Assembly (NCBI RefSeq): GCF_004010195.1 | Contig: NC_057720.1 | Coordinates: 30,255,579-30,319,578 of the forward strand | DNA from: Chiloscyllium plagiosum | Lineage: Eukaryota | DNA: 64,000 nucleotides | Direction: 5' to 3' | Shown: one piece after another, positions 3,901-58,260 of the stretch | Position numbering within the stretch: the first letter of the stretch is position 1 | Layout: each line of letters begins with the position of its first letter | The notes under the pieces: model-generated | The model's database searches: none | Told to the model about the DNA's origin: nothing | Seen by the model: only the letters and a program-made list of their open reading frames with translations | Translations under genes and position numbers: made by a program

Positions 3901-5297
3901 AAAGTTCTTTAACGTAAAGTTTTGGGAAATGCAAGTACAATTTCAAAGTTTAATTTTCCGTCTTCAATGAAAAGCGGCGTATCGGTGAAAGTTTAGTCTG
4001 ACCTAAAAGCTATATCTGAGAACTTGGAGCTATATCTGGATATTTTAAAAGAGAAAAGCGTGGAAATATATTATTTGATCGTTGTAATTTTGTTAAAACT
4101 CCGCAGTTTTGGTTAATTGACGCTTGTGACAGCCTCAGAAAATGGATTAACCTCACCGAGTTCCCGTTGGCTGTTGTATTTTTACCTCCCACCCCGGCGA
4201 GCACACATGCACAAACATTCTCAACACAAGGTCATTTTTCAGATCTATTTAATGTTGAAAGTTCACCAGAGTTCAACTCTGAGCTGATCAACTCTCATCT
4301 GCCTTTTAAGGCAAGTTAAAAAATTCTGGAAATACACAGCAGGCCTAGCAGAATCTGTTTAAAATAGTTTAATTTCTGGCTATCTTATATTTTTATATCT
4401 CCAAGCTGGATGTAAGAAATTTATATTGGGCAAAGGAGAAGGGATAGTGAAACTAAAAAGCAAGAAGTGTGACTGGAGTCCTGTCGCGCAGAAGTAATTC
4501 ATCTATTTAAGTCAACAAGCAGTGCTTTGTTCTCAGTTTAAAAACAGAAAATGCTGGTAACAGTCGGTATGGTCAGGCAGTATCTGTGAAGACAATTAGG
4601 GTTAATCTTTCAGGTCATTGACTTTTCGATAGAACGCTGTGAGTAAGCGAAACGTGGCGCTGTACAGAACAGTTGGAATTTATGGTGGTGGAGCTCAAGA
4701 TGTTACGAAGTAATTTTGTGCTCCGAACCAAGAGAGATCGAGCGCTTCCATAATCCTAAATAAGTAGGGACAGCGAGATCTGGTTTCGTGAAGTTGACTG
4801 ATGGATAGCATATTGGAAGGTTTAGATCGGTTGCGAAGATGGATTTGCATCCAGAGCGCACCACACCTGGCAGGATTAATCAAGTTAACGAATCTAAACA
4901 ATGCTGCCAATTCTTAACATCACGCTGAGAAAGAAATAGTAACCAGAATGGAAATATCAACAGGCTAGCAGGGAAAGTTATTGTTGAATGTCTAATACAT
5001 ATGGTGTAACAGACAGGACCGTTTTAAAAAAAAATACTGATGGGATGTGGGTTATGTTGGTCTGTCCAGCATTTATTGTCCATTGCTAGTTGCCCTTGAG
5101 AAGGTGGTGAGCTGCGGCAGTCCATCTAGTCTCAGTACACCCATAATGCCAGTAAGGAAGGAGTTCCAGGATTCTGACCCTGATATATTTCCGAAGTTAA
5201 ATATCACACAACACCAGGTTATAGTCGCAACGGGTTTATTCGGAAGCACAAACTTTGGGAGGCACTGCCTCTTCATTAGGTAGTTGTGGAACATGAC

Positions 5298-5455
5298 GAA
5301 AATGAGGGCTGGAGATCAGAGTCGAAATTAGTGGTGCTGGAAAAGTACAGCAGTTCAGGCAGCATCTGAGGAACAGGAAAATCGACGTTTGCAAAAGCCT
5401 GCTCCTCAGATGCTGTCTGAACTGCTGTGCTTTTCCAGAACCACACTAATCTTGA
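5298..5455. mobile_element. Short fold-back PLE relic (family A), 16-bp TSD AGTTGTGGAACATGAC
   Basis: Inverted GTGCTGGAAAAG..CAGCAG..CAGGCAGCATC arms; exact TSD at 5282-5297 and 5456-5471. Confidence 0.8.
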
Positions 5456-5607
5456 AGTTGTGGAACATGACCATATGACACAGAATTTATAGCAAAAGGT
5501 TTACAATGCCATGGAGCTGTAATGTTATATTAAAGAACTTTGATTAAAAATCACACATCACCAGGTTACAGTTTGATTCAGTCTCCCATCTTTTAGAATG
5601 GGATATG

Positions 5608-5863
5608 ATTAGATTCCCTACAGTGTGGAAACAGGCCCTTCGGCCAACAAGTCCACACTTGCCCCTCTGATGAATGCTCCTAATAACTATGGGCAATTTA
5701 GCACAGCCAATTCACCTACCCTGCACATCTTTGGACTGTGGGAGGAAACCCACGCAGACACGTGGAGAATGTGCAAACTCCACACACAGTCGCCCGAGGC
5801 TGGAATCGAACCTGGGACCCTGGTGCTGTGAGGCAAGCAGTGCTAACCACTGAGCCACCGTGC
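5608..5863 (-). mobile_element. HE1-type tRNA-derived SINE
   Basis: Minus-strand head GCACGGTGGCTCAGTGGTTAGCACTG (box A) and GGTTCGATTCC (box B); CR1-like tail; flanked by GGGATATG repeats. Confidence 0.85.
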
Positions 5864-6569
5864 CCCCCCCCCGGGATATGGTGGTTTAGATTCTTTAATA
5901 TGTAAATCCCAGAACTACATTCTCAAGGTGGTGTCAGCATTTCTAGTAATAGGTATCATTTCAGCTCAGACAATGCATTAAATGTGTGAAGGTAAAGTCT
6001 GTCACAATGTTGAGTCAATTCTATTTCTAAAGTGGGGCTTACAGAATCTTACATGCTTCCAAATAAACCTGTTCGACTATACCTGTTGTTGTGATTTCTA
6101 ACTTTGACCACTCCAGTCCAACACCGGCACCTCCAAATCATGATATATTTCCAAGTCAGGATGGTGACTGGCTTGGAGAAGATCTTGTAGCCTATGGTGC
6201 GCATATGTATCTGCTGCCCTTTTCCTTCTAACAGTCGTGGGTTTGGAAGCTGCAGTCTAAGGAGCCTTGGTGAATATTTGCAGTGCAACTTGTAGATAGT
6301 TCATTGTTTTTGCTGAGCATCTTGTTGAAGGGAATGGATGTTTCTAGATGTGCCAGTCAAGTGGGCTGCTTTGTCCTGGAAATCATGTCCATTGTTGTTG
6401 GAGCTGCACCCATCCAGGCAAGTCAGGAGTGCACTATTGCATTATTCTCCTAACTTGTGCCTTGTAAATGGTAGATAGGATCAATACTCTGTTCAATGCC
6501 TCTCCTCATCTTTCCTCATAGATCTATCGCCTGCTCTCTTTATCTACTTTTCACTGAAGTGCATTTAAA

Positions 6570-10674: not shown

Positions 10675-13600
10675 AGCACTTTGGGGCCAGCGACCATAAT
10701 TCAGAGTTTTAAAATAGTGATGGAAAAGGATAGACCAGGTCTAACAGTTAATCTTCTAAATTGGAAGAAGGCCAATTTTGACAGTATTAGGCAAGAACTT
10801 TCAAAAGCTGAATGGGGGCAGATGTTCCCAGATAAAGGGACGGCTGGAAAATGGGATGCCTTCAGAAATGAGATAACGAGAGTATCTTCATGTTTGGGTG
10901 AAAGGAAAGGTTGATAGGTATAGGGAATGCTGAATGTCTAAAGGAATTTGAGGGTTTGGTTAAGAAAAAGAAGGAAGTGTATGTCAGGCATAGACAGGAT
11001 AGATGGAGTGAATCCTTAGAGTAAAAAGGCAGTAGGAGTGTACTGAAGGGAGAAATTAGAGGGCAAAAAGGGGACATGAGACAGTTTTGGCAAATACCAT
11101 TAAGGAGAATCCAAAGGGATTTTGCAAATACATCAAGGACAAAAGGGTAACTAGGGAGAGAATAGGGCCCTTCAAAGATCACCAATGCAGCCTTTGTGTG
11201 GAGCCGCAGAAAATGGGGGAGCTACTAAACAAGTATTTTGCGTCAGTATTTACTGTGGAAAAGGACATGTAAGACATAGAATGTAGATGGTGACATCTTG
11301 ACAAATGTCCATATTACAGAGGAGGAAGTGCTCGGATGTCTTGAAACGCATAAAGCTGGATTAAATCCCCTAGACCTGATCAGGTGTACCTGAGAACTCT
11401 GGAAAGCTAGGGAAGTGATTGCTGGGCCTCTTACTGAGATATTTGTATCATTGATAGTCACAGATGAGATGCTGAAAGACTGGAGGTTGGCTTACGTAGT
11501 GCCACTGTTTAAGAAAGTTGGTAAGGACAAGCCAGAGAACTATAGACCAGTGAGCCTGATGTTGGTGGTGAGCAAGTTGTTGGATGGAATCCTGAGGGAC
11601 AGGATGTACGTGTATTTGGAAAGGCAAGGACTGATTTAGGGATCGTCAACATGGCTTTGTGTGTGGGAAATCATGTCTCTCAAACTTGACTGAGTTTTTT
11701 GAAGAAGTGACAAAGAGGATTGATGAGGGCAGAGGGGTAGATGTGATCTATATGGACTTCAGTAAGGTGTTTGACAAGGTTTCCATGGAAGACTGGTGAG
11801 CAAGCTTAGATCTCATGGAATACAGGGAGAACTAGCCATTTGGATACAGAACTGGCTCAAAGATAGAAGACAGAGGGTGGTGGTGGAGTTGTTTTTCAGA
11901 CTGGAGGCCTGTGACCACTAGAGTGCCACAAGGATCGGTGCTGGGTCCACTACTTTTTGTCATTTACATAAATGATTTGGATATGAGCATAAGAGGTATA
12001 GTTAGTAAGTTTGCTGATGACACCAAAATTGGAGGTGTAGTGGACAGCACAGAAGGTTACGGCTGAAAATGTGTTGCTGGAAAAGCGCAGCAGGTCAGGC
12101 AGCATCCATGGAACAGGAGAATTGATGTTTCGGGCATAAGCCCTTCTTCAGGAATGAGGAAAGTATGTCCAGCAGGCTAAGATAAAAGGTAGGGAGGAGA
12201 GAGTTGGGGGAGGGGCGTTGGAAATGCGATAGGTGGAAGGAGGTCAAGGTGAGGGTGATAGGCTGGAGTGGGGTGGGGGCGGAGAGGTCAGGAAGAAGAT
12301 TGCAGGCTAGGAAAGTGGTGCTGAGTTCGAGGGATTTGACTGAGACAAGGTGGGGGGAGGAGAAATGAGGAAACTGGAGAAATCTAAGTTCATCCCTTGT
12401 GGTTGGAGGGTTCCTCGGCGGAAGATGAGGCGCTCTTCCTCCAACCGTCGTGTTGCTATGGTCTGGCGATGGAGGAGTCCAAGGACCTGCATGTCCTTGG
12501 TGGAGTGGGAGGGGGTGTTGAAGTGTTGAGCCACGGGGTGGTTGGGTTGGTTGGTCCGGGTGTCCCAGAGGTGTTCTCTGAAACGTTCCGCAAGTAGGCA
12601 GCTTGTCTCCCCAAGATAGAGGAGGCCACATCGGGTGCAGCAGATGCAATAAATGATGTGTGTGGAAGCGCAGGTGAATTTGTGGTGGATATGGAAGTAT
12701 CCCTTGGGGCCTTGGAGGGAAGTAAGGGGGGAGGTGTGGGCGCAAGTTTTGCATTTCTTGCGGTTGCAAGGGAAGGTGCCAGGAGTGTAGGTTGGGTTGG
12801 TTGGTGGGGGGGTGTGGACCTGACGAGGGAATCACGGAGGGAGTGGTCTTTTCGGAACGCTGATAGGGGAGGGGAGGGAAATATACCACCTCCAAACGGA
12901 CCCCACCACCAAGTCCCTCCTCCCTACCTTTTATCTTAGCCTGCTGGACACACTTTCCTCATTCCTGAAGATGTCCTTATGCCCGAAACATTGATTCTCC
13001 TGTTCCTTGGATGCTGCCTGACCTGCTGCGCTTTTCCAGCAACACATTTTCAGCTCTGATCTCCAGCATCTGCAGTCCTCACTTTCTCCTCAGCACAGAA
13101 GGTGACCTCAGGTTACAACGGGATCTTGATCAGATGGGCCAATGGGCTGAGAAGTGGCAGATGGAGTTTAATTTAGTTAAATGCAAGGTGCTGCGTTTTG
13201 GGAAAGCAAATCTTAGCAGGACTTATACCCTTAATGGTAAGGTCCTAGGGAGTGTTGCTGAACAAAGAGACCTTGGAGAGCAGGTTCACAGCTTGAAAGT
13301 AGAGTCGCAGGTAGATAGGATAGTGAAGAAGGCATTTGGTATGCTTTCCTTTATTGGTCAGAGTATTGAGTACAGGAATTGGAAGGTCATGTTGCGGCTG
13401 TACAGGACATTGGTTAGTCCACTGTTGGAATATTGCATGCAATTTTGGTTTCCTTCCTATCGGAAAGATGGTGTGAAACGGGTTCAGAAAAGATTGACAA
13501 GGGTTTGCCTGGGTCGGAAGATTTGATCTACAGGGAGAGGTTGAATAGGCTAGGGCTGTTTTCCCTGGAGTGATGGAGGCTGAGGGGTGACCTCATAGAG

Positions 13601-14868: not shown

Positions 14869-15045
14869 GTAACATTCAGTGTTTTTAATTGGACAATGAG
14901 AGCGTGTTGAAGTTAATAGTCATCATTCTGGGTGGGATGTAACCCTTTCATCGCGAATGTTTTTATTTTTTCCAGAAATGGTCTGGATTACGTACAATCT
15001 CTTGTTAACTTTGTCACAGGTTCTGCTGCTTTTGAGCAACAATGC

Positions 15046-15249
15046 TAGAGACAAAAATACTGCAGATGCTGGAATCCAAGGTAGACAAGCTGGAGGCTAG
15101 AAAAACACAGTAAACATCAGGAAGTGGAGAAGCTAAAGTTTCGGGTATAACCCTTTTTCCTCTGCAGTTTTCTTTTGTCAAATACGTTGACTTCTCCACC
15201 TCTTGATCTTGCCTAGCTTGCTGTGTTCTTCCAACCTCCTGCTTGTCTA
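15046..15249. mobile_element. Short fold-back PLE relic, exact 16-bp TSD TTTTGAGCAACAATGC
   Basis: ACTGCAGATGCTGG terminus and inverted arms; TSD at 15030-15045 and 15250-15265. Confidence 0.75.
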
Positions 15250-15964
15250 TTTTGAGCAACAATGCATTGTGCCACAATTGTTTTGCTGTCTTTGAGGCCT
15301 TCCCTGCAGCTGTCACATATTGGGTGCTATCTGGTATCTTGTCATCACATAAAAAAATTAGGAATTATTGAGAACTGCTGAACCCTCAAGAGGATGTTGA
15401 ATAGCAGTCAAATGTGCATCCAGAAATCTGGGAATATCCTCTGAATTAGGATCCATCATTGTATTGCAGGATATTGTGTGATAGTTCATCAAAACACTAT
15501 ATCCTGCTTAGCTGCAGCATCACCTTGGGAGGGCGAGGAGAGGAGGCGCTCACACTGGCGATTGTCAGGCTGTTCCTACAAAATGAGTTAAGTTTTCTAA
15601 TTTGTGCTGAATACAGTAACCTAAATTAAAGAATATAGAGTTGGTTTCTTATCTGATCCCTAATGCCGATGCATGCTCACCCAGCATTCTCTTAGACTAT
15701 TTTAAATTTGTATTAAAATGTCAAAAAGATGGTATAATTTATTCAATTTGCTGTTTTAATTGGATGTCTTACTGGTGTTCTAAATGAAATATATTTTGAG
15801 AGCCTTATGCTAATTCTGGACTATCTTTAGCCCACAGTAGAAATCTGCCTTAAATTTGATCAATATATTGGCAGGTTTGAAGACCCATATATTACACCTG
15901 ATCTATATCATGTAGTCAGTGAATGGTAATTCAAAATGATTACATGCAATTTCTTTTCTTACAG

Positions 15965-16267: not shown

Positions 16268-18703
16268 AAGTGTTTTCAGTACAAATATTTTAAAGGCTCA
16301 GTGTTGAATGGTGAAAACTTCATTTACAAATAATGGAAGGCTGAAAAGAAAACTATTTTGTTGTATTGTCTGACGAACATAAATCCAGTATGATCGCTCC
16401 AATAATTATGCATTTTTAAAAGTGTTCATGCTATTATTTGCAATATTTTAGAACAAAAATCAGTGGGAAGTAGAAAATTTTAAATTAGAGGCAACGCTGT
16501 TGAAATTCATTAGCGAAGACAAGTCTAGGGTGATAAACCTGAAACAAAAACTGAAATAGCAGGAGAACCTCAGCAGGTCTGGCAGTATCTATAGAGAGAA
16601 AGCATCAACATTTTTGGGTCTAGTGACCCTTAAACATTGATTCTGCTTTCTCTCCAATCTTTAAGGGCCACTGGACCCAAAATATTGACTCTTTCTCTCC
16701 ATCGATGCTGCCAAACATGCTAAATTTCTCCAGCGATTTCTGGTTTCAATTCCGATTTCCAGCAGTACTTTTTTTTTAGGGTGGGAAATGTTTAATTCTA
16801 TTATAGTTTGACTTACCGTAGTTTACCCTGTGTTATAATGCATATGTGTAAATAAGCTGTCATACTTTTCCACACCCACAAATTGATGGGATTGAATAAA
16901 TTTTAGGAGCTCTGCAATGGGATTTTTGAGTACAGCCAAGGGGAATTTGCCAGTATATATATTAATCTTGTGAATTAATTTTTATATGCTCTTTGTCAAT
17001 GAGAATCCTGCTATTAGATGGACTTGGTTTGTTAGCCTGAAATTGATGTAAGTGAAATTAGAACAGGTTATATATAACCTTTCCAGGAATTTAGAAAACT
17101 AGAAGAGATTTGTGATCCATATGTCTAGTCCCAAAATTCAAAACCGTGCCCCACACTAGCCCAACTCTTAATTCTTTTATCCAACAAATTTTAATGTAGA
17201 TCATACCAATTTGATGACAGTACATAACTCTTTAGGGCAGTCGTGTGTATGTATAATTTTGTATAAGATGTAGATTGAATGTATTGTATCAAAAACACTA
17301 ATGATTTTCCAATGTTGATAAAGAATATTTTGTCACCCTTTCCATTATTGCACTTCTCTAGTTTGTTTTTCATGTACTTTTGATGGCTCATGGTTTTTAT
17401 ATTAATTTTGTTCTTTCTGAAGGTATCACTGGCAAGGCCAGAATTAGTTGCCCATTCTTCATTGTCCTTGCATTGAGTGGCTTGCTCTGCCATTTCAGGG
17501 AATGTAATGCCTGCATTTCTCACCAGAGGGCAACTAAAAATCCTACACAGTACTGTAGGTCTGAAGTCACATGTAGGTCAGACAAAATAAGAATAGCTAA
17601 TTTCCTTTGAGTTAACAGTGCTGTATTATTGTCAAATGTTCCTGGGACATACTCTAAATTTTACTATCAACTGTGTTGGAATTCAAATTTTTTTTTTAAA
17701 GTCTGGGTTAGAGAACTAGCCAAATGGTGACATATAACAGCTGTCGATCACTGTAAAAACCCATCTGGTTCATGTTGCCCTTTTTAGGGAAGGATATCAA
17801 CCAGTTACCTGATGTGAAGTTAGTTGAACTTTGGTGGGGAAACCTCTACTATTTCTGTCACAATCAATTATGTCTAATCCCATGGAAAAAGATGGATTGA
17901 TTAGGAATTGGATTTCTAAAGGGGAAGTCATGTTTAACTAATCTGCTGGAATGTTTAGAAGACGTTACAGCAAGGCTGAATGAGTAATGCTGTTGATATG
18001 TTGTACGTGGATGACCAGGTGTTTACAACTGTGTGACACTATTAATGTGAATATAAAATTGGTTGAGTGATAGGAAATGGGGTAACAGTAAATGGATAAT
18101 TTCTGAGCTGGCGGAAAATTTATCGTGGCTTTTCTCAGAATATGAGCATTTTGCACTTATATTCTACCCTTCAAGCTGTCACATTTTGACTTTGGTGGCA
18201 AAACTATTTTTCAATCTCCCTTCTTACAACCTCACAACAGCAGCCCCTGAGTCCCCTACACTCTATGCTCTTTGCAATCTTGCTGCCATTGCTGTCAAGT
18301 TCCACACAGGTCCACCACCATTCTGTCTGTTTCTGTGACCTCTTTGTTCTCACTGCAATTGGCTTAATAAACTGGAGTGAAAACAATTGTTTGGAATCTT
18401 CAGCTTGAGAATAAAATGTAGAAGGCAATCCTAAGCAGCACCCAGGGAGTATGTATTGTCTGGAGAGCACTCATTCAATGATAATGATGAGATGTGATCA
18501 GATCATTTGTTCTCACATTTGTGTATGGTTTTCAAATATGGTATTATTGTCCATGTTTTTCTAAAACTATTTACTGTTGATCACACACCCACATTCATTG
18601 AGATAACACAATTTACTAGAATAAGTTTTGAACAGTCATATAGGATTAGAAATGATAACTACTTTATCCACAATTGCTGCCAAATCTCCAGCTCTGTATT
18701 ATC

Positions 18704-24374: not shown

Positions 24375-24564
24375 CTGAAAAGAGAACAGAGCCAAAATTA
24401 ATCTCTAGAAGGCAAAAATCTTTTTTCCCTGCTTGGCAGAAAACAAAACTCACATCCATAATTCAATATTATAAAGATCATATCTTTTTTATTTTGCTTT
24501 AATCTTGATTGTGGATTGAACTGGGAAGAGGAGGAGAAAGTGATATTCCTGATGAAGGGCTTAT

Positions 24565-36514: not shown

Positions 36515-36662
36515 CTTGGCAAGAATAAAAAACATAACAATATAGTCAGCATTGTACAGTAAATGAAATTATGCCTTTACTTAGTTACTGAGCATGTGTC
36601 TACAGGGCTCGAAATAAGATGGTACCTCTCAGCATCTTCTGTACATAGTCATGTTCATTAAA

Positions 36663-36864
36663 CGGAGATACCGGTGTTGGACTGGGGTTTACAAAGTTAA
36701 AAATCACACAACACCAGGTTATAGTCCAACAGGTTTAATTGGAAGCACACTAGCTTTCGGAGCGACGCTCCTTCATCACCTGATGAAGGAGCGTCGCTCC
36801 GAAAGCTAGTGTGCTTCCAATTAAACCTGTTGGACTATAACCTGGTGTTGTGTGATTTTTAACT
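36663..36864. mobile_element. 202-bp fold-back PLE-derived element (family B) with perfect 84-bp arms; 12-bp TSD ATGTTCATTAAA
   Basis: 36695-36778 is the exact reverse complement of 36781-36864; TSD at 36651-36662 and 36865-36876. Confidence 0.9.
36777..36811 (+). ncRNA. Minimal type I hammerhead ribozyme motif
   Basis: CAC-CUGAUGA-A-GGAGC(GUC)GCUCC-GAAA-GC-UA^-GUG: intact core, stem I CAC/GUG, 5-bp stem II, palindromic AGCU stem III. Activity is not shown. Confidence 0.75.
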
Positions 36865-37663
36865 ATGTTCATTAAAGACTTGCTGTTTCATCAAGAAGGT
36901 GGATCTCTCAATACTACAAGCATGACGTAGTCCTTTTCTATCTCAGTTTGCTCCTATTTAACTTTTCTAGTACCTGATTGTTTCTTAACAGGCAAGGTGA
37001 GACATGAAAATGCCTTCTCGTTAATTATATAATTTGCAAGTTCTTCATAAAATTAGCATTTATTCTCAAGACAAAGGAAGATTTATTAGCCTACAGATGA
37101 CAGTTCAGAAAAAAAACGTAGAAACTGAAAGTCATAACATTTACAAATAAAACAGCTAAAACATTTCCTTTAAAAAAGTTTGAGTTATTCAGCTCAAGTA
37201 ATTCACCTTCAAACTGTGATTATTTCAGTCAGCGTACAGTCAACACACCACTATATTGGCCTTACTACCACTACACCCGGGAGAAGAAAGAATTATTTGA
37301 GATGGCAATAGTTCAGGTTTTAAAAGGGAGCCCGGGCAATTTCTCAGCACAGAGAACTGTTTAAAATGCTAGTTTGGGAACTGGGAAAGGAGATTCAATG
37401 ATCAGCAATTGGAAGTGAATTTAAAAACAGATTAAATATAACTTCAGCCTGAGCAAGCTCCGAATGTTATCACGTAACATTCACAAAATTACTTTGTTAT
37501 TCCTCACATGGCGGTATGTCCTGACAATGTATTTAACCTTGCCTATCTGTATCGCTTGCTCTTTTATTTCCACAAGTTGCGAGTCGAGTGAAGCAGCTTT
37601 CCCAAGACGTTCCGAGAAGTGCCCCTACCCCCACCGATTTCTGGGCAGCTTTTCAAATCTCAC

Positions 37664-38050: not shown

Positions 38051-39202
38051 TCTCCAAAATACCACAGTATTGATAAAAGTAAAATAAATCAATTGCTTGT
38101 TATTACAGTAAAATTGGAGGTGATCACTTGAAGTGAGCAGCCTTTCAAAATTAAAAAAAGACAATTAAAAACCATGGGAAGGTCAGGCTCCATGATGATG
38201 GACATTTTGGGTGACCAAAGGCAGGAGTCTGGAGGAGGGGCAGTTGAAAATAGAAAGTCATGTTGCCACATTTTCAGGAATATAACCTGCCAGAGTGGCA
38301 ACCGTCTTCGACAGATACTTAAAGGGAATCATCAATAATTGAACTATCAGAGCCATAGAGGTAGTGACAACTCCATGGGAGAGGTCAAGGGGCCGGCGCC
38401 AGGAGGGATACAGATCCAGATCCACTACATTTAGTGTGCTGTGATGGCTATTTAAAGGAAGGATGAAATTTCACACAGATTTCCCCTCCACGTATCCATT
38501 TTAATTATTTTTAATCAACCTGTTCTGTCATGTCATGATACACCTTCGGCACAAGTGGGACTTGAACTTGGATTTTCTGGCTCAGAGGCGAGCACACGAA
38601 CATTGTGCTTCAAGAGCCCTTCAACTTCGCTATGTGTACTGATGGCACACGTTCTGCATCCATAACAAAAGGCCCATCTACCCATTAGTCCTGTCATTGC
38701 TGACCTCTCTAGGTTTCTAGTTTTCTAACACCTCCAAATTAAACTTTTTAAACATGTGTAAATTTTGTGATAGGCCTTACTCCTATCTCTACAAAATGTC
38801 AGGAGACAAATGTCCTCCATGGATAGGGCAAAGAAGCAGGTCCTGCAATCACACCAAATGGATCAAACCTCCTGCAATTGACAACAATCTGGTCCACACC
38901 AGCTGTCCAGCCAACTGAATCAATTTGATATATTGTGGCAACATACATGTAGCCCAGAACTATGGATAATTTTAGAGGCTCCAATTTCCATGATATAGCT
39001 GACCAGGAATCTCTCCCATTCTTACCACCTGCCATTTGTTGGAAGAATTTGCAAGTTGTCATTCAATTGTTAGGGCACCATTCTTGACCATCAAGTCCTG
39101 GAGACAGATTTGAAATTAGAGCTTTTGGTTCAGAGGGAGGGATACTACCCACCAATAGATAGGACTTTCCTGAGGCAGATTAGTAGATATAAATATTTTC
39201 AG

Positions 39203-39815
39203 AGCTGAAAATGTGTTGCTGGAACAGCGCAGCAGGTAAGTCAGCATCCAGGGAACAGGAGAATTGACGTTTCGGGCATAAGCCCTTCTTCAGGAATGAG
39301 GAAAGTGTGTCCAGCAGGCTAAGATAAAAGGTAGGGAGGAGGGACTTGGGGGAGGGGCGTTGGAAATGCGATAGGTGGAAAGAGGTCAAGGTGAGGGTGG
39401 GGTGGGGCGGAGAGGTCAGGAAGAAGATTGCAGGTTAGNNNNNNNNNNNNNNNNNNNNNNNNNNNNNNNNNNNNNNNNNNNNNNNNNNNNNNNNNNNNNN
39501 NNNNNNNNNNNNNNNNNNNNNNNNNNNNNNNNNNNNNNNNNNNNNNNNNNNNNNNNNNNNNNNNNNNNNNNNNNNNNNNNNNNNNNNNNNNNNNNNNNNN
39601 NNNNNNNNNNNNNNNNNNNNNNNNNNNNNNNNNNNNNNNNNNNNNNNNNNNNNNNNNNNNNNNNNNNNGGGGGAGGTGTGGGCGCAAGTCTTGCACCTCC
39701 TGCAGTTGCAGGGGAAGGTGCCGGGAGTGGAGGTTGGGTTGGTGGGGGGTGTGGATCTGACGAGGGAGTCACGGAGGGAGTGGTCTTTACGGAACGCTGA
39801 TAGGGGAGGGGAGGG
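39203..39815 (-). mobile_element. Penelope-like element (family A) spanning an N gap; hammerhead motif at 39262-39297 (-)
   Basis: Near-identical to 12062-12880; flanked by AAATATTTTCAG (39191-39202 / 39816-39827). Confidence 0.85.
39439..39668. other. Assembly gap (N run)
   Basis: 230 Ns. Confidence 0.99.
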
Positions 39816-42499
39816 AAATATTTTCAGGTCACTTCTCTATGACTGAAGCACATTTCATGTTTCCAATCCAATGAAAATTTTCAATTCTTTCAAAGGCTTT
39901 CATAAACAAATCTGCCTATTTACTATACAGATGCAGACTGAATTGGTGTGTTTCTTCCAATGAAATCTGTACTCTTTGGAGTTGTAGAATGACACTATCA
40001 TCAGCTTCCTCTATTTTGTTGTTTCTCCTCTGTCTGTTCCACCCTCTTCATTTTTAAAGCGTACTCCTTTTATTTTTCCATTTCTTACTATTTTTGGCCA
40101 GGTCTCCATTCCCATTCTTGCACTCTCCATATTGTGGTCAGGTCCTGCAAGCTATGGTACAATATGGAAGGGGTGATGGACCACCAGAAAATACAGCACT
40201 TTCTCCCTTTGTCTTTTTAGGGCCAACAAGCACATCAGCTGCTTTTATCAGTGGATTTTCATAATGCAAGGATGTGTTGTGGGCCACTGAAATCATTAAA
40301 TGGACCAGTTTCAAACTGCTGATCAGAGATCTTGGCTAACCTCTCAGCCTGTATTTTTAATCACAGTTGCAGTTCCAAGAAAGTGCACTACAGAATTATA
40401 GAAAATGGATTCCTGTAGTGAGTCTCAATCCTCAGCAGAGTTATTATTGCCTCACCTCAGAACATGGGCAAAAATCAGCCAGATGCATCTATTGCTTATC
40501 ATTCAGCCATGTTGACAAAAGCTAAACGGTTATGAGGAGAAAGTGGGAGAATGGGGTTGAGAAACTTATCAGCCACAATTGAATGGCGGAGCAGACACGA
40601 TAAGCTGAATGGCCTAATTTCAGCTCCTATCTCTTATGTTCTAACCTCCAGCTTGCCCAGGCAAGAAATAGTAGCCCCAATATTTCTTCATCCTTCACCC
40701 ACTCCAATTTAGTTTCGATGACGCACAAAATGATCCTGTTGTCCTGACCTCAGCATGCCTTATCTGCATTGCAACAGGGTCTACAATTGAAAAGTACTTC
40801 ACGAGTGAAACAGATTAGGATTTCCTGACATACTGAATGTCTTCCTTCTTTCTTCTCTTTCCTCATAAGTCTACAACCTGGGGGTCTACCTAATGTCTCT
40901 CTGGGCTTCTGGATGTTTTCAAAAAGATCAAATCAGAACCACACTGGACCTAAAGATCCTGTGGGGAGGTTGGAGAGAAAGGCAACATTTAAATTTTCAG
41001 GGATCCCTCATTTTGAACTTTGTCATCCTGAGATGCTGTGATCCAAAGAACAGGGAGACGCAATCAGGAAATTCTGATGAGAGTTCGAAGAATGTGACAT
41101 TGGGCTTGGAATGCTACAGCTCATCACTATTTTCATGCATGTTTTCGACTAAAGGCTTCCCCTCCATTAGTGAAGTCTTGGAAAGACTAGAGTAACAAGA
41201 AGAGGTCAGAGATCTGGTACCATAGGTCTCTGCCTACAGATCCCATGACTTCCTACTTTCTAAATAAACATCACATGAAATTTAGCCCAAAATGTTGCAA
41301 CCATAGAATGAGCCAGGATATAGTGGAAAAAATAAACTCTAAGTTAAATGAATGGGTTTGTAAACTAAAACTGAATTTTGCTTCAAATAATCACTGACTA
41401 CACAATATATGATACACAAGACAATAACAGCATAAAAGGAAATTGGATGAAGATTATAGTTCAATTATGGTTATTTCCTGATTAGATTAGTCAAGTAGCT
41501 AAAAGTTCATCCCAGGCAGCTGGTGTAAAATGGACAAAATTGGTTCATGTGTTAAGCAGAGCCTGAATTTCAGTTCCTGTGGAGTCAATGGGAGTAAATT
41601 CCAGGTACTCCACATAAAAAGCAGCTGGTTTGATACCACAACTTTTGTGCCACTGCCTGAATTGAGCTTATAAAACAATATCTTTGAAATGTAGTGGCAG
41701 CTGACAGCATCTGATGATCATTGGTGGAACAATAGATGACTCTTTTAGTTTTCTAGGGCTTATCATATTACATTTATAGTTAGATGACCTGTACATGTTG
41801 TATATCAATTAGAACATCTTACAAGACTGATCCAAGAATGACATGGAAAAACTAGACAAGCAACCTCCTTAAAACAAAATCCTCATTTTACTCAGACAAT
41901 CTTCTCCGAATTCAGACATTACATGATCTGTATACTCTTCCAATCAGTAGAACATAAGATTAATGAACACATCAGCACAGGATCGAAATAAATGATCCTC
42001 CACCAGAACAGGAACAATCTAGAATAAAAGCATGATTGTAGAAATGTGTTCATTTCAGCAACAAAGCAGAAGTAACCCAACAAACCTGCACATTTGATAC
42101 ACAATAATTCTCATATAAGACTTACAAAAGTTACCAATTACAGTACTGCGTACAAGGTATTCTTGGTATAAATTTTTAGTTTTTATTTAGCTTTGCTTTG
42201 TTACTGATCCTATTGTCTGCTTAAGTTTCAATTGCTACACTGCATTCTCCAAAACAGTACATGTCTCTCTCTCTAATGTGATTCATATAAAAATGAGTTG
42301 ATTGTTACTTCCTGTGATATAGCTTAACAATCTTAACAGTCCCCCACCATAAGGGAAACAACATAATTACATCAGATATATCATTGTGAACTATTTCCTT
42401 TGCCGTACACTTTCAAAAAGACTTGATTTCAAGGGTCTGCAAACCATAGTAAAGCACTTTCACCGTTGTAGATGGCCCTATCCAAAATAATGGCATGTA

Positions 42500-43912
42500 C
42501 TAAACAATCTTCACATTTCTCAGTAAGTCCAAAACACCTTCTTGTGTGAGAAATACTGTCTTTCTATTGTTTTGACAGCTGACTTCAAAAACTGGTGGAT
42601 TTTCCAAAACTCGCTTCCCTGCAATTACAACATATGGGTAACCCAGACGACTGGCATCTTTCAATCTCTTGCCTATAGTCAGGTGGCTTCGGTCATCCAA
42701 GAGCACCTCTCCATGAAGCTGGGGGACAGCATCTATTAAAGTATCATACAACGTCTCAGACAGTCCTAGGCTCAGTTCTTCTTTACTGCCTTTCTTAGGT
42801 GGAATGATGCACACTTGGTAAGGGGCCAGGAGGCTTGGCCAGCGAATCTCATCTTCCGTTGACAAAACCTCTATGGCAGCGGCTAGTATTCGTGTGACTC
42901 CAAGGCCAAAACAACCCATTTCGGTTACAACAGGCTTATTCTCAGTGTTGGAATATGAGGCACCTAAAATATATGAATACTTTGTCCCAAGGTTAAAAGT
43001 GTGTCCCACCTCAATGCCTTTGCTTTCTTTCAGCTTTCCATGACACTGTGGGCAGTTTGTTTCAGTGTCCGTCATTGCTTCAACATTGGCTGCAAAATGG
43101 CAGTCAGAACACATTAAAAGGCGATCCTCCCCAATATCAGCTGGCAGCTGGAACTCGTGAGACATTTTCCCACCAATGTTGCCGGTGTCCGCCCGCACCT
43201 TTACAAACTGCAATCCCAGCTGGCCAAAGATACAACTGTAAGCTTGGGAAACAAGATTATAGGTCTCCATGGCAGCTCCTTCCGAGACATCAAACGTGTA
43301 CATATCCTTCATGTAGAACTCTCGTCCACGGAGCAAACCAAAACGTGGCTTTGGCTCATCTCGGAACTTTCTTGTCACTTGGTAAAGCATCAAAGGTAGC
43401 TGTCTATATGAGAGATTACCCTGCATGGCAATTAGCTCGGTCACTGCCTCCTCGTGTGTTGGACTTAAACAGTATTCCATGTCATGCCTATCCTTCAGTC
43501 TGAATAGTTCCTTCCCCAGAAGGTCCCAACGTTCACTGGTCTTCCACAGACTTGCTGAGGTGAGGCTGGGCATGTTCACCTTCTGACCCCCAATGGATTG
43601 CATTTCTTTATCAATCACACGGACAAGTTTCTCCATGGCTCGAACTGTATACGGCAGATAGTGAAAGCAGCCTGTATTGGCTGGCTGAATAAGACCTGCC
43701 TGAAGCATCAGTCTCTGGCTCTTGCAGGTAATGTCACTGGAGCGGCCAACCCCAGTAGTTCTATCCTCGCGGAGATTCATTGGCTGGAAGAGACGAGACA
43801 GTAATATACGCTTGGACCTACCATGGTGATAATAGGACCTGTGTAAATGTAAGATGTTACAGAACAGTCTGTTGAACAATTGTCTTGAATTTGAATAGAT
43901 TGCCACCTCCAT
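42500..43912 (-). CDS. PARS2: Mitochondrial prolyl-tRNA synthetase, single coding exon (470 aa)
   Basis: Class II aaRS ProRS motifs (LSPTHEEAVT, YQVTRKFRDEPKPRFGLLRGREFYMKDMYTFD, GIEVGHTFNLGTKYS, MGCFGLGVTR, anticodon-binding DDR..TIGKRL). Basic N-terminal presequence-like stretch. Splice acceptor just upstream (exon starts 43936); AATAAA on the minus strand at 42182-42187. Confidence 0.97.
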   Translation of the reverse strand: MEVAIYSNSRQLFNRLFCNILHLHRSYYHHGRSKRILLSRLFQPMNLREDRTTGVGRSSDITCKSQRLMLQAGLIQPANTGCFHYLPYTVRAMEKLVRVIDKEMQSIGGQKVNMPSLTSASLWKTSERWDLLGKELFRLKDRHDMEYCLSPTHEEAVTELIAMQGNLSYRQLPLMLYQVTRKFRDEPKPRFGLLRGREFYMKDMYTFDVSEGAAMETYNLVSQAYSCIFGQLGLQFVKVRADTGNIGGKMSHEFQLPADIGEDRLLMCSDCHFAANVEAMTDTETNCPQCHGKLKESKGIEVGHTFNLGTKYSYILGASYSNTENKPVVTEMGCFGLGVTRILAAAIEVLSTEDEIRWPSLLAPYQVCIIPPKKGSKEELSLGLSETLYDTLIDAVPQLHGEVLLDDRSHLTIGKRLKDASRLGYPYVVIAGKRVLENPPVFEVSCQNNRKTVFLTQEGVLDLLRNVKIV

Positions 43913-44419
43913 TACGCATCCAAGAAATAATTAGTTCTAGAAAGGAAAACAAAGAGGATAAGTTCACATCTTTCTCAAAAAAGAACATTTTCAAAACCCA
44001 TACCATATTTAAGAAAGGAAAACACTGTGGACTGAATGCATAACAGCAAGTGAACTAGGTACATCATTGTCATATTATTTCACTTGCAATGTTTATTAAG
44101 ATGAGAGATGCGAAACATATTCACCTGTGCTTTCCAAGATCACAATTAAGCATCCAATAACAATCAAGCATTCTTCAGTGTGTCATCAAAGCAGGAAAAG
44201 ATCAACAACTGGCCTACTTCACTGTACATCCAGCATATTCTGGCTATTATAACTTAGCATGGACTCACACACAGTTAACTATGCATAGTTACATCCACCA
44301 GGATTGATTGTCACATATTAAGCTGGATTGCGTGTTGGGTTACCATTTTCATCAACTACAATCCTGGTTTTTAAAAGTGGCTGCAAAGCGAGCAGCAAAA
44401 GTGATTATCTTCCAAACTT

Positions 44420-45860
44420 CTTTGGTTCTGAAACAATACCAGCAGACTGGGAAATAGCAAATAGAATAGCTTTACTTAAGAAAGAACAGAAACAAAGTGC
44501 AGGAACGTATAGAATAAAGCCAATGTTGCAAGTAGTTTACTTGCTGGAATCCAAGATTATGGTTGTAGGAGGGGACTTGAAAATCATAACGGAATCTGGC
44601 AGAGTCAACATGGTTCTGTGAAAAATAAATCATGTTTAACTACTCTGTTAGAGTTTTTTGAAGAAGTAATAAGCACAACAGATATAGATGACCCTGTAAA
44701 CATTGTGTTCTTAGATTTCCAAGAGACTTTTGTGAAAGTGTCACATCAAACGTGGTGACACAAAGCAAATGGTTATGATGTTAGCAAGGATAAAGGAATG
44801 GTTGTCTGACAGGAAACAAAATAGGACAAATTAATCTTTTTCAGACTGGCAGACCAGGGTTAGTGGAGTGCCACAGGAAACATTGCTTGGCTCGCAACTA
44901 TTTATAATCTATATTAATGTCTTGGATGATGGGACGACGGTAGTTAAATTTGCTGACAAAATAGCTAGGATAGTTATTTGTTAAAGGAGCTACAAGGGTT
45001 AAGAGAGTGGGCAAAACTTTAGAGAGAGTACAATATGGAGAAATGCAAACTTCCAAATTGATAGGAAGAATGGAAAAGTAGCATTCAAGTTAAATGGAGA
45101 CAAATTACAGAATTCAGTGGTATTGAAGGAATCACAAAAAGTTTCATAAAGTAATTCAGGAAACAAATGAAGTGTTGGTGCTTATTCTAATAGGAAAAGG
45201 ATAAAGGAATGGTTGTCTGACAGGAAACAAAATAGGACAAATTAATCTTTTTCAGACTGGCAGACCAGGGTTAGTGGAGTGCCACAGGAATCATTGCTTG
45301 GCTCGCAACTATTTATAATCTATATTAATGTCTTGGATGATGGGACGACGGTAGTTAAATTTGCTGACAAAATAGCTAGGATAGTTATTTGTTAAAGGAG
45401 CTACAAGGGTTAAGAGAGTGGGCAAAACTTTAGAGAGAGTACAATATGGAGAAATGCAAACTTCCAAACTGATAGGAAGAATGGAAAAGTAGCATTCAAG
45501 TTAAATGGAGACAAATTACAGTGGTATTGAAGGAATCACAAAAAGTTTCATAAAGTAATTCAGGAAACAAATGAAGTGTTGGTGCTTATTCTAATAGGAA
45601 TGGAATATGGAAGTAGGTTTTTTTTTTACAGCTGTACAGAGTCTCAATGAGACTACATTTGGGGAAGTAGATAAAAACAAGGACTGCAGATGCTGGAAAC
45701 CAGAGTCTAGATTAGAGTGGTGCTGGAAAAGCACAGCAGGTCAGACAGCATCTGAGGAGTAGGACTCGGATGCTGCCTAACCTGCTGTGCTTTTCCAGCA
45801 CCACTCTAATCTACATCTGGAGTAGTGTCTAGTTTGTGTCCTTATTTGTAAGGCAATGCA
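44420..45860 (+). mobile_element. Old CR1 LINE remnant in the PARS2 intron, containing a tandem duplication and a short PLE fold-back (45669-45810)
   Basis: Decayed DWEIAN, KSCLTTLLEFFEEV, SGVPQ and KFAD motifs. Confidence 0.75.
44786..45600 (+). repeat. Near-perfect tandem duplication, ~411-bp unit
   Basis: 44786-45196 and 45197-45600 differ by two substitutions and a 7-bp deletion. Confidence 0.92.
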
Positions 45861-45889
45861 AGTGTTTTCTTTAGAGGTTTATACAGCAG

Positions 45890-46322: not shown

Positions 46323-46329
46323 CTCGGTC

Positions 46330-46560: not shown

Positions 46561-47514
46561 CATCCGTTTCAAAACAGCTATTTAGCTTTTCTGCAGGTAC
46601 CTTTCTCCCTCACTGGTGCAGTTCTTAAAACAAAAAAGAAATGCTGAAACTACTCAGCATCTGTGGAGAGAGGAAGAGAATTAATGTTTCACGTCTGCGA
46701 CCGTTCATCAGAACTGGACTTGACACGGGGAGGAGCGCGGAACAAGTATCATTAAAATAAACCAGAGTTGTATATCCATCAAAATAAAGCATCCAAACAC
46801 TTTGAGGAGGTGGCATTCAATAGATGGCCAAGAATCTGAAAGGTTACAGGCAAAGGACATTATGAACAGTCATGGTGCTACCATAAATATTACTTTCCAT
46901 GCTTTATCATTCTCCGAAAGATTTGCAGTGAGGATTTCAATTGGTAATGTTCTGAATGCACATCCACCCACCTCATCTACTGCATTTTGTTATGGACCAC
47001 ACCAGACCCTGTCAAAACATTTCAAGAGAGTAACACACACGCTAACTTTTCTAGTTGTTTTAATCAGGTGTAGAGTGGATATTCCAGGAGTGATGCAGCT
47101 GGCCCAACCACTCAGTTTTAAACAAAACAGAATTTATTTACAGACTACTGAATGAAACACAAACAAAAGAGAACACAATATAGAACAACTTAACCTATCT
47201 GAAAACCAATTCAACTGTCGCAAAGTAATGATGCTGTTTCAAATACCTGCAATATCCCAATAAACACACCCTTGGCAAAAAAAGGTAAAATCAAACACAG
47301 GTTCTTGCAGGAGAAATGTCAGAGACAGAATGTGCCAGAAAACCTCTGCTGAATCCAGGAACCTTCTCCCCAAGCAGCTTTCTTTGACCAGCAGCTTCAA
47401 GCAGAAGGCTTGCTAAAGCCAAACCAAACGAAAACCAGAAAAAAAAACCCTGAACCGAGAGAACTGGCCACTCCCCTTTTATTGTACAAGTGTTCTTTAT
47501 TAAAAAATTAATGT

Positions 47515-48066
47515 GGGGGAGGGGAAATGAGGAAGCTGTTGAAATCCACATTTGTCCTGTGTGGTTGCAGGGTCCCAAAGTGGAATATGAGGTGTTCTTC
47601 CTCCAGGCGTTGGGTGTTAATGGTTGGTAGAGGAGCCCAAGGCCACAGACATCTACTACAAACCCACCAACTCCCAAAGCTATGTAGACTACACCTCCTC
47701 CCACCCTACCTTCTGTAAAAACACTATTCGTTATTCCCAACGATCCACATCCATGAACACCAACTAGCCATGAAACGACACGACCAGCTATCCTTAGTAG
47801 CCACACACGCAGATGACAAGCAACATGAATTCGACTGGGACAACACTACTATTATAGGACAAGCCAAACAGAGAACAGCCAGGGAATTCCTAGAGGCATG
47901 GCACTCATCCACAGATTCAATCAATAAGCACATCGACCTGGACCCAATATACCGACCACTGCAGCGGACAGCTGGAACTGACAATCGGAAGCAGCAGATT
48001 CAAACCACTACAAATGCCGGAGGAAAGATCACAGAAGCGCTTCACAGGAGGCTCCCAAGCACTGAG
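47515..48066. mobile_element. Composite PLE fragments: family A inverted junction (47515-47728) plus a family C GIY-YIG fragment (47729-48066)
   Basis: HEHQLAMKRHDQLSLVATHADDKQHEFDWDNTTIIGQAKQRTAREFLEAWHS...SINKHIDLDPIYRPL is a Penelope/Poseidon-type GIY-YIG C-terminus. Confidence 0.8.
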
Positions 48067-54547: not shown

Positions 54548-55045
54548 TCAGGTGTGATCAGGATTCATTGTTTCCAAAAGTAATTTTACTATTCGCAGCT
54601 TCCCAGCTATGATCATAGCTCTGGAGAGTTTTAAAATCTTTGGCATATGGTTTCGGCAAATTAAGCGCAGTTCCTGTCGGACTCTCTCCATTTGATACTT
54701 TGCCTCAGCTTTTTCTACCCAGATTTCCACCTCACGGATGACCATTTCCTCACTGGATTTCTCCTGGATGAACAGTGACAAAAGCGATTCAATGAGGCAG
54801 CGGAATGTCTCAGAGTACTGGGATCCTACATCATCAAGTTCAATTGCTTGCTTGAAGCACTCAACTGCATTGTGCTCCTCCCCTTTGACCTGTAAACACT
54901 TCCCTCTCAGCAACTGGATCTCGGGCAGCGTGTCTCCCATGTCAAGCTCCATGGCTTTGGCAAAGAAAACTAAAGCATTGTTTAGTGCATTCTCATCCAC
55001 CAACTGGAGTTCTTGCACAGCATCAACACCCATGTAGTAACAAAC
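54548..55045 (-). CDS. TTC22: TTC22 last coding exon
   Basis: VCYYMGVDAVQELQLVDENALNNALVFFAKA...LPEIQLLRGKCL...LLLETMNPDHT*; acceptor taacag. PARS2-TTC22 adjacency is also seen in human 1p32. Confidence 0.92.
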   Translation of the reverse strand, partial: VCYYMGVDAVQELQLVDENALNNALVFFAKAMELDMGDTLPEIQLLRGKCLQVKGEEHNAVECFKQAIELDDVGSQYSETFRCLIESLLSLFIQEKSSEEMVIREVEIWVEKAEAKYQMERVRQELRLICRNHMPKILKLSRAMIIAGKLRIVKLLLETMNPDHT

Positions 55046-55444
55046 CTGTTAGCAATACAGAAATAGGTTATTAATCCAAAAGGAGCAATGAAATTGAACT
55101 TGGGTGGCAGTGCATTTCAAGACTATAAACAAATTTACATATCTAGAAAAGTTCATAATCCACAAGAGGTCCAACAGTTTGAGAGTCATCAGTTTAGTAT
55201 ACAACAAATATTTGTGGGAACTTTTTAAAAAATGCATTCAAGGGATGAGGGCATTAGTGGCTCGGCCAGCATTTATTGCTCATCCCAGAGTGCAGTTGAG
55301 TCAACCACATTGTTGGAGGTCTGGAGTCACGTATAGGTCTGACACATAGATAAGGTTTGCAGTTTCCTTCCCTTAAAGACATTAGTGAACCAGATAGGTT
55401 TTTTTTCCCCCAACAATTCACAATATATTCACGGTCATCATTTA

Positions 55445-55770
55445 GGTGGCATGGTGGCTCAGTGGTTAGCACTGCTGCCTCTCAACATCAGGGACCTGGG
55501 TTCGATTCCCATCACGGGCAATTGTCTGTGTGGAGCTTGCACGTTCTCCTTGTGTCCACTGGGTTTCGTCTGGGTGTTCCGTTTCCTCCCACGGTCCAAA
55601 GATGTGCAGGTTAGGTGAATTGGCTATGCTAAATTGCTCACAGTGTTAGGTACATTCGTCAAGGGTAAATATAGGGTAGGGGAATGGGTGTGGGTGGGTT
55701 ACTCTTTGGAGGGTCAGTGTAGACTTGTTGGGCCGAAGAGCTTGTTTCCATACTGTAGGGAATCTAGTCT
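55445..55770 (+). mobile_element. HE1-type SINE
   Basis: GGTGGCTCAGTGGTTAGCACTG...GGTTCGATTCC head; tail shared with CR1. Confidence 0.85.
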
Positions 55771-55875
55771 AGTTATTAGACTCCTAATTCTAGATTTGTA
55801 TTGACTTCCACCATCTGCCATGGCATGATTTGAACCCAGGTCCCCAGAACATTACCTGGGTCTTTGTATTAACAG

Positions 55876-57463
55876 TGAAGAGTGTGCTGCTGGGAAAGTA
55901 CAGCAGGTCAGGCAGCATCCGATGAGCAGGACAATCAACGTTTCAGGCATAAGCCCTTCATCAGGAATGAGGCTTGTAGTCCAGGGCTAAGAGATAAATT
56001 GGGGGGGGGGTTGGGATGGAAGGTAGCTGAGAAAGTGATAGGTGGGTGAAGGTGAGGGAGAGGTGATAGGTCAGAGGGGGAGTGATGATGGACAGGTCAG
56101 GTGGGTGGTGCTGAGTTGGCGGCTTGGAACTGGGATAATTTTGGATAGGGAAAATGAGGAAACTGTTGAAATCCACATTTATCCCGTGTGGTTGCAGGGT
56201 CCCAAAGCAAAATATAAGGTGTTCCTCCTTCAGGGGTTGGGTGGTAATGGTTGGTGGAGGAGCCCAAGGCCACAGGCATCTATTACAAGCTCACTGACTC
56301 CCACAGCTACCTAGACTACACTTCCTCCCACCCTACCTCCTGCAAAAATGCCATGCCTTATTCCCAATTCCTCTACTTCTGCAGCATCTGTTCCCAGGAT
56401 GACCAATTCCACCTCAGAGAGTCCCAGATGGCATCCTTCCATGATCGCAACTTCTCTTCCCACGTGGTTGACAATGCCCTCCAGCGCATCTCCTCCACTT
56501 CATGCACCACTGCCCTTGAACCCCACCCTTCCCAATGCAACAAGGACAGAACCACCCCCCGGTCCTCAACTTCCACCCCACCAACCTCCGCATACATTGC
56601 ATCATCCTCCGCCACTTCCACCACCAAAAATATATTTCCCTCCCCACCCCTATCAGCGTTCCAGAGAGACCATTCCCTCCATGACTCCCTCGTCAGGTCC
56701 ACATCCCCCACCAGCCCACACCTCACTCCTGGCACCTCTCCCTGCCACTGCAGGAAGTGCCAAACCTGCACCCCCACCACACCTCTCACATCCATCCAAG
56801 GCCCCAAGGGATCCTTCCACATCCAAGAGAAATTTACCTGTACCTCTACCATTGTCATCTACTGCATCTGTTGCACCCAGTGTAGTCTCCCCTACATCAG
56901 GGAGACAAGGACGCCTTCTTGCGGATCATTTCAGGGAACATCTCTGAGACACCTGCATCTACCAACCCCACCGCCCCGTGGCTGAAAACTTCAACTCCCC
57001 CTCCCACTTCGTCAAGGACATGAGGGTCCTGGGCCTCCTCCACCGCCAAACCATTACCACCTGACGCCTCGAGGAGGAGCGCCTCATATTCCACCTTGGG
57101 ACCTTGCAACCAGACAGGATTAATGTGGATTTCAACAGCTTTCTAATTTCTCCATCCCCCACATTATCCCAGTCCAAAACCTCCAACTCGGAACCGCCAT
57201 CCGGACCTGTCCATTACTCCCCCCTGACCTATCGCCACCTCCCTCACCTTCACCCTCCTATCGCTTTCTCAACTACCTTCCCCCCCCAACCCCACCCCGC
57301 CTTCCATTTATCTCTCAGTCCCAGCCCACAAGCTTCATTCCTGATGAAGGGCTTATGACTGAAGTGCAATTCTCCTGCACCTCGGATGCTGCCTAACCTG
57401 CTGTGTTTTCCCATCACCACACTCTCGACTCTGATCTCCAGCATCTGCAGTCCTCACTTTCTC
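55876..57463 (+). mobile_element. Penelope-like element (family A) with inverted 5' part, RT-thumb/GIY-YIG remnants and hammerhead-bearing pseudo-LTRs
   Basis: TGIYYKLTDSHSYLDYTSSHPTSCKNAMPYSQF; PCHCRKCQTC; FTCTSTIVIYCICCTQC. 55880-56270 is inverted at ~57025-57425. Diverged 16-bp TSD (55860-55875 / 57464-57479). Confidence 0.9.
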
Positions 57464-58260
57464 GTCTCTGGAATAACAGCCCAGCCTAGGCCATTGCCTC
57501 CTGATCAACCATTTTATGATTGTGTAACTAGGTGATGCTTTTTTTTTTAGGAGAAAGACTGTTAAAGGCTACACTACTTACTGTTAATCTGATTGCAACT
57601 GGGTAAGAAGCTAAAAATGTGGCTGCTACAAGTCACCTGACTGTGCAACTGCAAGTTCTACAAGGATCTCACAGAAACGTGCACAAACATGTAAAAACTC
57701 ATGGTGACTCATTGCAACAATGTAAATTGGGCATTGACCACACCTAAGACTTAGAACCACAATTTCTCCCTTCAACTCTATTTTGATTTAGTACCCTCCC
57801 TCCCTTCCTACTCTGTCCTTTTTTTTGTTGTTATTAATTGTTATTTGTTTAGTGGGTAAATTGAGAGATTAAGTGGTGGGTTAATTTAAAAAGTTCCTTC
57901 CTCTGGGTGAAGAGGCCCAGGCTCAAGTCCCGAGGTGTGTAACAATATCTCTGAACACATCGATTAGAAAACATCTTTTACAAAAAAAAAAGTAGGAGAA
58001 AAGAGTTGTCCCTGAAATGTGTCACTGCATAGGTCACTTGATAACAGTGGCCATTCTACCTTGTCAACTATGAATGACTCAAAAAGGTAAGCTGTCTAGA
58101 CAGAGAGTTTCTATCGAGACATACAGAGAGAGATAAAAAAGGGATTCTCTCCAAGAGTCAACTGTCCTTTGTAAAAAAATACTAATTATCCAATTACAGA
58201 AGCCACCACAGCTACTGGATATGACTTCAAGTCTTAATCTCTTAAACAAAGAACTCAAAC

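Follow-up and report, generated by a model that had tools for sequence, protein, structure and literature searches.

The 64,000-nt stretch of Chiloscyllium plagiosum DNA analysed here (contig NC_057720.1, forward-strand positions 30,255,579 to 30,319,578; hereinafter the window) contains insertions of Penelope-like retroelements of three families, designated A, B and C. The insertions are hairpin-like or partly coding, their two arms repeat one element end in inverted orientation, ~35–38 extra bases (the tail) are present on one of the two arms, and short direct repeats flank each insertion. Across 420 loci these repeats are target-site duplications (TSDs) whose lengths fall in narrow, family-specific bands, suggesting that each family probably sets the distance between the two nicks at its target. 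The insertions and associated features in the window are listed below, with the strand where one is assigned.

5181–6152: B1, family B insertion, 12-bp repeats at 5181–5192 and 6141–6152; host of A1 and of another repeat
5282–5471: A1, family A-type insertion, a 158-bp hairpin nested in B1, exact 16-bp repeats at 5282–5297 and 5456–5471
12045–13106: A2, family A insertion in a long interspersed nuclear element (LINE), 16-bp repeats at 12045–12060 and 13091–13106 with 1 mismatch
12307–12831 (minus strand): C-terminal fragment of a GIY-YIG endonuclease with a CX4CX2C linker before it (predicted Neptune type), from the translation; weak Pfam GIY-YIG match (E = 0.002, short of the curated cut-off)
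15030–15265: A3, A-type insertion of an older subfamily, exact 16-bp repeats at 15030–15045 and 15250–15265
24517–26498: A4, A-type insertion, 16-bp repeats at 24517–24532 and 26483–26498 with 1 mismatch
36651–36876: B2, family B hairpin insertion, exact 12-bp repeats at 36651–36662 and 36865–36876
36780–36808 (plus strand): putative hammerhead-like minimal core in the middle of B2, comprising a core heptamer, a short stem and GAAA, read from the sequence
39191–39827: gap-containing A copy, tail-less end, 12-bp repeat explained in part by element sequence
45653–45826: A5, A-type hairpin, 16-bp repeat with 3 mismatches and soft ends
55860–57479: A6, A-type insertion, 16-bp repeat with 3 mismatches and soft ends; part of an open reading frame at 56248–56985 (plus strand) on the tailed arm
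58251–58819: C1, family C insertion (predicted Penelope/Poseidon type), exact 10-bp repeats at 58251–58260 and 58810–58819

A preliminary description of the window had assigned fixed TSD lengths of 16, 12 and 10 bp to families A, B and C, respectively. All nine direct repeats lie where it placed them, with 0, 1, 0, 1, 3 and 3 mismatches in the 16-mers of A1 to A6 and none in the 12-, 12- and 10-mers; the target sequences are unrelated to one another, as it had noted, and the 12-bp repeat of the copy at 39203 is likewise present (39191–39202 and 39816–39827). The left arm of A2 is tail-less and its inverted right arm is tailed. LINE sequence breaks the interior of A4, and 2 and 3 of its terminal repeat bases also match the element. 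For A5 and A6 the automatic caller returned 6-bp exact cores only.

Identity and architecture of the three families

Translations of all three families show an endonuclease, with a Pfam match for A only, and a weak one (E = 0.002). In families A and B the coding sequence covers the C-terminal end of a GIY-YIG endonuclease and, before it, a cysteine linker, which is complete in A and was seen in B in one decayed copy (L339) whose last cysteine is not intact; in the family C translation (L304) the endonuclease is entered without a cysteine linker. In PMC8557442 the Neptune clade is recognized by a CX2-5CxxC linker between reverse transcriptase (RT) and endonuclease, which Penelope/Poseidon elements lack. 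By the definitions in the consulted part of that source, A and B would be of Neptune type and C of Penelope/Poseidon type, although Nematis has a linker too. RT fragments at two further loci (L040 and L104) match Pfam RVT_1 and are tied to A and C by resemblance only; the loci yielded no such fragment for B and no intact open reading frame.

The second arm stops ~35–38 nt before the tail tip in most inverted pairs (69/86 in A, 57/68 in B and 33/40 in C), and in tandem copies the tail runs on into more element sequence. The genome contains 26,681 (A), 9,805 (B) and 2,411 (C) exact copies of the tail motifs, with 2,925 and 401 more for older A subfamilies; the ends of family C were located by pattern match.

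The A and B ends carry a core motif, spotted by eye, that we take to be hammerhead-like, with a self-complementary stem. Comparison of three loci (L003, L051 and L082) with the Rfam hammerhead gave no match, only generic hairpins below threshold. Hairpin centres lie near this motif and vary among A copies, so most hairpins are likely made anew at each insertion, and a master hairpin element for family A is unlikely. In family B, B2 (36675–36858) and 39 other hairpins share a 184-nt core of equal length and 98–100% identity, whose centre lies immediately 5′ of the hammerhead-like core, where many plain A and B truncations end too. This common stop points to a defined RNA 5′ end or an RT stop.

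An A-related hairpin family, designated D, is represented in the window at 16536–16746, where we found no clear TSD for this copy, and by 20 arm matches in 600 kb of unselected DNA. At 47509–48065, A and C coding fragments lie side by side without called TSDs.

The flanking repeats are target-site duplications

For C1, single contigs from three runs carrying two other species labels (X5, X8 and X10) join 58250 to 58810 with zero letters between them, showing that the 10-mer is present once in the empty orthologous site. The comparison with empty sites that had been proposed earlier therefore confirms the nature of the repeat at this one site; a search of the same runs for the A6 insertion found no empty site. 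Uninterrupted paralogues were found for 67 of 214 rebuilt empty sites; the modal net indel is 0 for 41 of these 67 and no larger than 2 for 58. The rebuilt site of A2 is matched without net indel by 36 of 49 uninterrupted LINE paralogues, and paralogues of the A1 host site have a modal indel of –1 (24/44). When flanks are swapped between insertions, the calling score is reached in 0.5–1.75% of 400 trials per family. The repeats on either side of these Penelope-like insertions are real TSDs, present far above chance.

Narrow, family-dependent TSD lengths

We read 420 loci (2.0 Mb), 60 of them unselected 10-kb regions and the others centred on young element ends. These contain 165 (A), 126 (B) and 76 (C) distinct tails, with a canonical tail-less inverted arm in 88, 58 and 37, respectively. 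A TSD, called as a flanking repeat scoring at least 8, was obtained for 159 insertions, distributed as follows (length in bp:number); the family B count leaves out 39 further young copies.

Family A (80 insertions): 8:1, 10:1, 11:2, 12:1, 13:6, 14:20, 15:19, 16:19, 17:6, 18:3, 20:2
Family B (49 insertions): 8:1, 9:6, 10:5, 11:1, 12:17, 13:11, 14:1, 15:4, 16:2, 17:1
Family C (30 insertions): 10:2, 11:3, 12:9, 13:9, 14:1, 15:3, 16:2, 17:1

The lengths peak at 14–16 bp in A (58/80) and at 12–13 bp in both B (28/49) and C (18/30), with means of 14.9, 12.1 and 12.9 bp. Family A differs from B (p = 6e-12) and from C (p = 5e-7), while B and C show no difference (p = 0.12; 49 versus 30 insertions). 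Automatic length calling, which had been suggested as a check, thus bears out a family effect that separates A from B and C, but neither a family A fixed at 16 bp nor three distinct values, since B and C are indistinguishable. What survives of the preliminary description is a narrow band per family: exactly 16 bp is seen in 19 of 80 A copies and exactly 10 bp in 2 of 30 C copies, which puts 16 at the top end of the A peak and makes 10 unusually short for C.

Clean exact copies give the same picture, with 14, 15 and 16 bp in 12, 11 and 13 of 44 A copies, 12 bp in 11 of 23 B copies and a spread of 10–17 bp over 24 C copies; in none of the families do nearly all clean copies share one length. The older A subfamilies A5 (14 copies) and A3 (6 copies) have medians of 14.5 bp; with 3 copies in A2b and 1 of 5 called in A6, these two subfamilies are too small for a length estimate. 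Given the genome frequency of 16 bp in family A, six out of six at this length in the window would be a 2e-4 event; with the soft-ended pair discounted and the 12-bp copy counted, firm 16-mers make up four of seven A copies (p = 0.06). Plain (non-inverted) copies were called at a score of 11, a score of 9 being reached by 22% of the null, and plain 5′-truncated copies resemble inverted ones in B (5 copies, mean 12.6 bp) and C (7 copies, mean 12.7 bp).

At three loci (L197, L274 and L339), A copies occupy nearly one spot within B ends and have near-identical TSDs of 13–14 bp, a possible hotspot. Rare insertions have both arms tailed (L170 in A, L301 in C), with a TSD call obtained for neither.

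Junction homology and the inferred nick stagger

In clean copies, an average of 3.3–4.4 bases of each insertion's repeat are identical to the element sequence at the junctions, and the visible repeat is therefore an upper bound on the stagger between the nicks. We fitted a junction model in four forms, leaving the start sites free and allowing for mutation and untemplated bases. Allowing homology improves the fit by 63 (A), 73 (B) and 37 (C) log units for 10 parameters, with an excess of 1–4 homologous bases at the junctions. With homology placed inside the duplication, the fitted stagger is 14–15 (A, 82%), 12 (B, 86%) and 11–13 bp (C); with homology on both sides, the form that fits A and C better, it is 13–15, 11–12 and 11–12 bp. 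The standard deviation (SD) of the stagger is ~1.1 in either form and 0.7–1.3 over all four, and the best single stagger in the two best-fitting forms is 14 for A, 12 for B and 11–12 for C.

Simulations passed through the same caller, two replicates each and for A and B only, return an SD of 0.4–0.6 for a fixed or two-value stagger and 2.3–3.2 for a broad one. A model in which both the RNA start sites and the stagger are fixed was rejected, as the geometric length then has an SD of 2.6–3.1, a wider scatter than that of the repeat itself. The modelling places the nick stagger at about 14 (A), 12 (B) and 11–12 bp (C) with an SD of ~1, the absolute value being uncertain by ~1 bp.

A motif shared by both nicks in A and B, and a tail on one arm

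Target bases –11 to –2 outside the duplication were compared between the tailed and the tail-less junctions. In A the two motifs correlate with r = 0.73, a value that none of 5000 position shuffles reached, mainly through G at –3/–2 (70 and 67 of 150 sites); in B they correlate weakly (r = 0.50, p = 0.014). Among 38 inverted pairs in the 600 kb of unselected DNA, exactly one arm is tailed in 34, two arms in 1 and none in 0, with 3 unclear; one-tailed pairs making up 34 of 35, against an expectation of one half, gives p = 1e-9. The length, motif and one-tail data together support the earlier proposal that the inverted ends arise from the same integration event as the TSD.

Other features in the window and beyond

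Two further coding features lie on the minus strand of the window: a single-exon, 475-aa class II tRNA synthetase with an anticodon domain (Pfam) at 42500–43930, presumably a mitochondrial prolyl-tRNA synthetase, and an exon with a TPR repeat at 54548–55048, which has weak Pfam matches and probably belongs to a host gene. Two tandem duplications, 44786–45196/45197–45600 (411 bp, 97.8%) and 33753–33843/33881–33971 (91 bp, 100%), could be assembly artefacts. Two random regions (L036 and L149) contain pol fragments of retrovirus-like or LTR-element type.

Discussion

We propose, with a probability of roughly 0.7, that the narrow family-specific TSD length records a set distance between two nicks, probably made by each family's GIY-YIG endonuclease on opposite strands. 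The motif shared by both nicks in A, and weakly in B, and the single tailed arm of nearly every inverted pair make it likely that a single kind of enzyme cleaves both strands and starts priming at two sites on the RNA. The endonuclease would nick both strands early, at the family-specific distance, leaving 3′ overhangs. A few bases at each 3′ end would pair briefly with the RNA, and both ends would prime reverse transcription, the first at the tail tip and the second at the tail base ~35–38 nt further 5′. The two cDNAs would stop, often near the hammerhead motif, and be joined head to head, and filling of the overhangs would give the TSD.

In B-DNA, the minor-groove stagger plus one helical turn comes to ~13 bp. 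On this ground we speculate that two protomers sit on one RNA and on one face of the DNA, an arrangement that would explain both the 12–14 bp spacing and the asymmetry. Its strictest form, a concerted, ruler-like cut by a two-protomer complex that recognizes the same motif twice, with a spacing fixed for each family (14 bp in A and 12 bp in B), and starts two RTs ~35 nt apart on one RNA, is put forward only tentatively, and we think it more doubtful than not. If true, TSD length and tail length would be two measures of one complex, and the stated model, in which a variable second cut follows first-strand synthesis, would be replaced.

Several points weigh against a set nick distance. The loci are drawn largely from contig C1 and from young copies; tails lacking a canonical inverted arm were excluded from the main count (77/165 in A, 68/126 in B and 39/76 in C); and repeats scoring below 8 are invisible, leaving 8 (A), 9 (B) and 7 (C) canonical pairs without a call. 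Plain truncated A copies have shorter TSDs than inverted ones (8 copies, mean 13.1 versus 14.9 bp, p = 0.007), suggesting that host trimming contributes, and the visible peaks are not much sharper than that of human L1 (14–16 bp, PMC2912911). The stagger shifts by ~1 bp with the assumed side of homology (13.4–14.5 in A, 10.2–12.0 in B and 10.1–12.0 in C), and for A the two-sided form beats inside-only homology (–4421 versus –4439). In C the motifs at the two nicks are not significantly alike (r = 0.17, p = 0.16, n = 30).

The best-surviving alternative is a LINE-like route, in which one strand is nicked and primed, the second is cut later, by the element or the host, at a loosely preferred distance that yields an ordinary TSD peak of the L1 or RTE kind, and inversions arise by L1-style twin priming. 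Clade-specific TSD peaks are general among LINEs, the visible A lengths range from 8 to 20 bp, the truncated A copies with shorter TSDs are L1-like, and this is the route stated for Penelope-like elements in the consulted part of PMC8557442. It is nonetheless unlikely, as both nicks carry one motif in A and B, the second priming site on the RNA is set and the one-tail asymmetry is almost strict, and the inferred SD near 1 contrasts with the 2.3–3.2 of broad simulations.

Lower still we rate a strictly fixed stagger per family (14 in A, 12 in B, 11 or 12 in C), with the scatter due to junction homology, untemplated bases and later mutation. A stagger of 14 is compatible with 40 of 44 clean A copies, and in B, the only family where a single value does as well as the free fit, a single 12 compares with the free form at –2590.4 versus –2591.8 in one fit and –2594.4 versus –2589.9 in the other. 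However, a single value is worse by 16 (A) and 10 (C) log units, simulations with a fixed 14 place about half of the repeats at 14 and fewer than one in ten at 16, against 20/80 and 19/80 observed, and the empty site limits C1 to at most 10 bp. The fixed values of 16, 12 and 10 bp, which fit the four firm 16-mers, two 12-mers and one 10-mer of the window, are practically untenable given how few A and C copies have 16 and 10 bp, a log-likelihood ~100 below the free fit for 16 in A (compatible with 18 of 44 clean A copies) and older A subfamilies also centred on 14–15 bp.

A peaked TSD alone is unsurprising for a target-primed element, as element-specific peaks are already established for LINEs. 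The premise of the preliminary description, that elements using target-primed reverse transcription usually leave TSDs of variable length, is overstated, since LINE clades too have characteristic peaks, cited in PMC4245944 as 13–15 bp for L1, 10–12 bp for RTE and 3–5 bp for L2. The 'specific-cleavage model' for LINEs likewise invokes an element-specific nick distance (PMC4245944, PMC6007223, PMC2912911). The set nick distance proposed here resembles that of LINEs (13–16 bp in L1, 10–12 bp in RTE) but involves another nuclease class, and here A and B differ within one clade (both of predicted Neptune type) whereas B and C agree across clades.

Endonuclease-containing (EN+) Penelope-like elements have inverted pseudo-long terminal repeats (pLTRs), a one-sided tail of 30–40 bp and a TSD (PMC8557442, PMC3846280), and the three families share these inverted ends, the tail at one end and the TSD. 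Such elements also encode a telomerase-related RT in the endonuclease reading frame and carry a hammerhead motif in the pLTR. Single rotifer copies have TSDs of 8, 9 and 10 bp (PMC8557442, PMC3846280), and the TSD is described as variable, with the second cut following first-strand synthesis (PMC8557442), unlike the narrow, family-specific lengths seen here. In the literature consulted, partly in excerpt, we found no per-family TSD length distribution for Penelope-like elements; older reviews, Repbase or supplements may give lengths.

The closest biochemical parallel is the green anole Poseidon protein, which in vitro nicks and extends both strands from two RNA start sites bounding the tail and is predicted to be a dimer (PMC11167929); the dimeric complex invoked in the preliminary description thus has a precedent in that prediction. 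Both-strand cutting and the two start sites agree with our reading of a set nick distance; in the present insertions, each of the two strands has a start site of its own. Priming is called non-homologous there, whereas the genomic junctions here show 1–4 nt of excess homology, and the main text, as far as consulted, gives no stagger or TSD length.

In the Penelope transposition cycle, what follows the first nick is the part still to be explained, and a purified system is now available. The staggers (~14 and ~12 bp, with 3′ overhangs), the motif at both nicks and the strict one-tail asymmetry are numbers directly testable by assay or structure. For annotation, expected TSD windows of 13–17 bp in A and ~10–15 bp in B and C help to place element borders in this genome, which holds tens of thousands of copies and 26,681 exact matches to one A tail motif alone.

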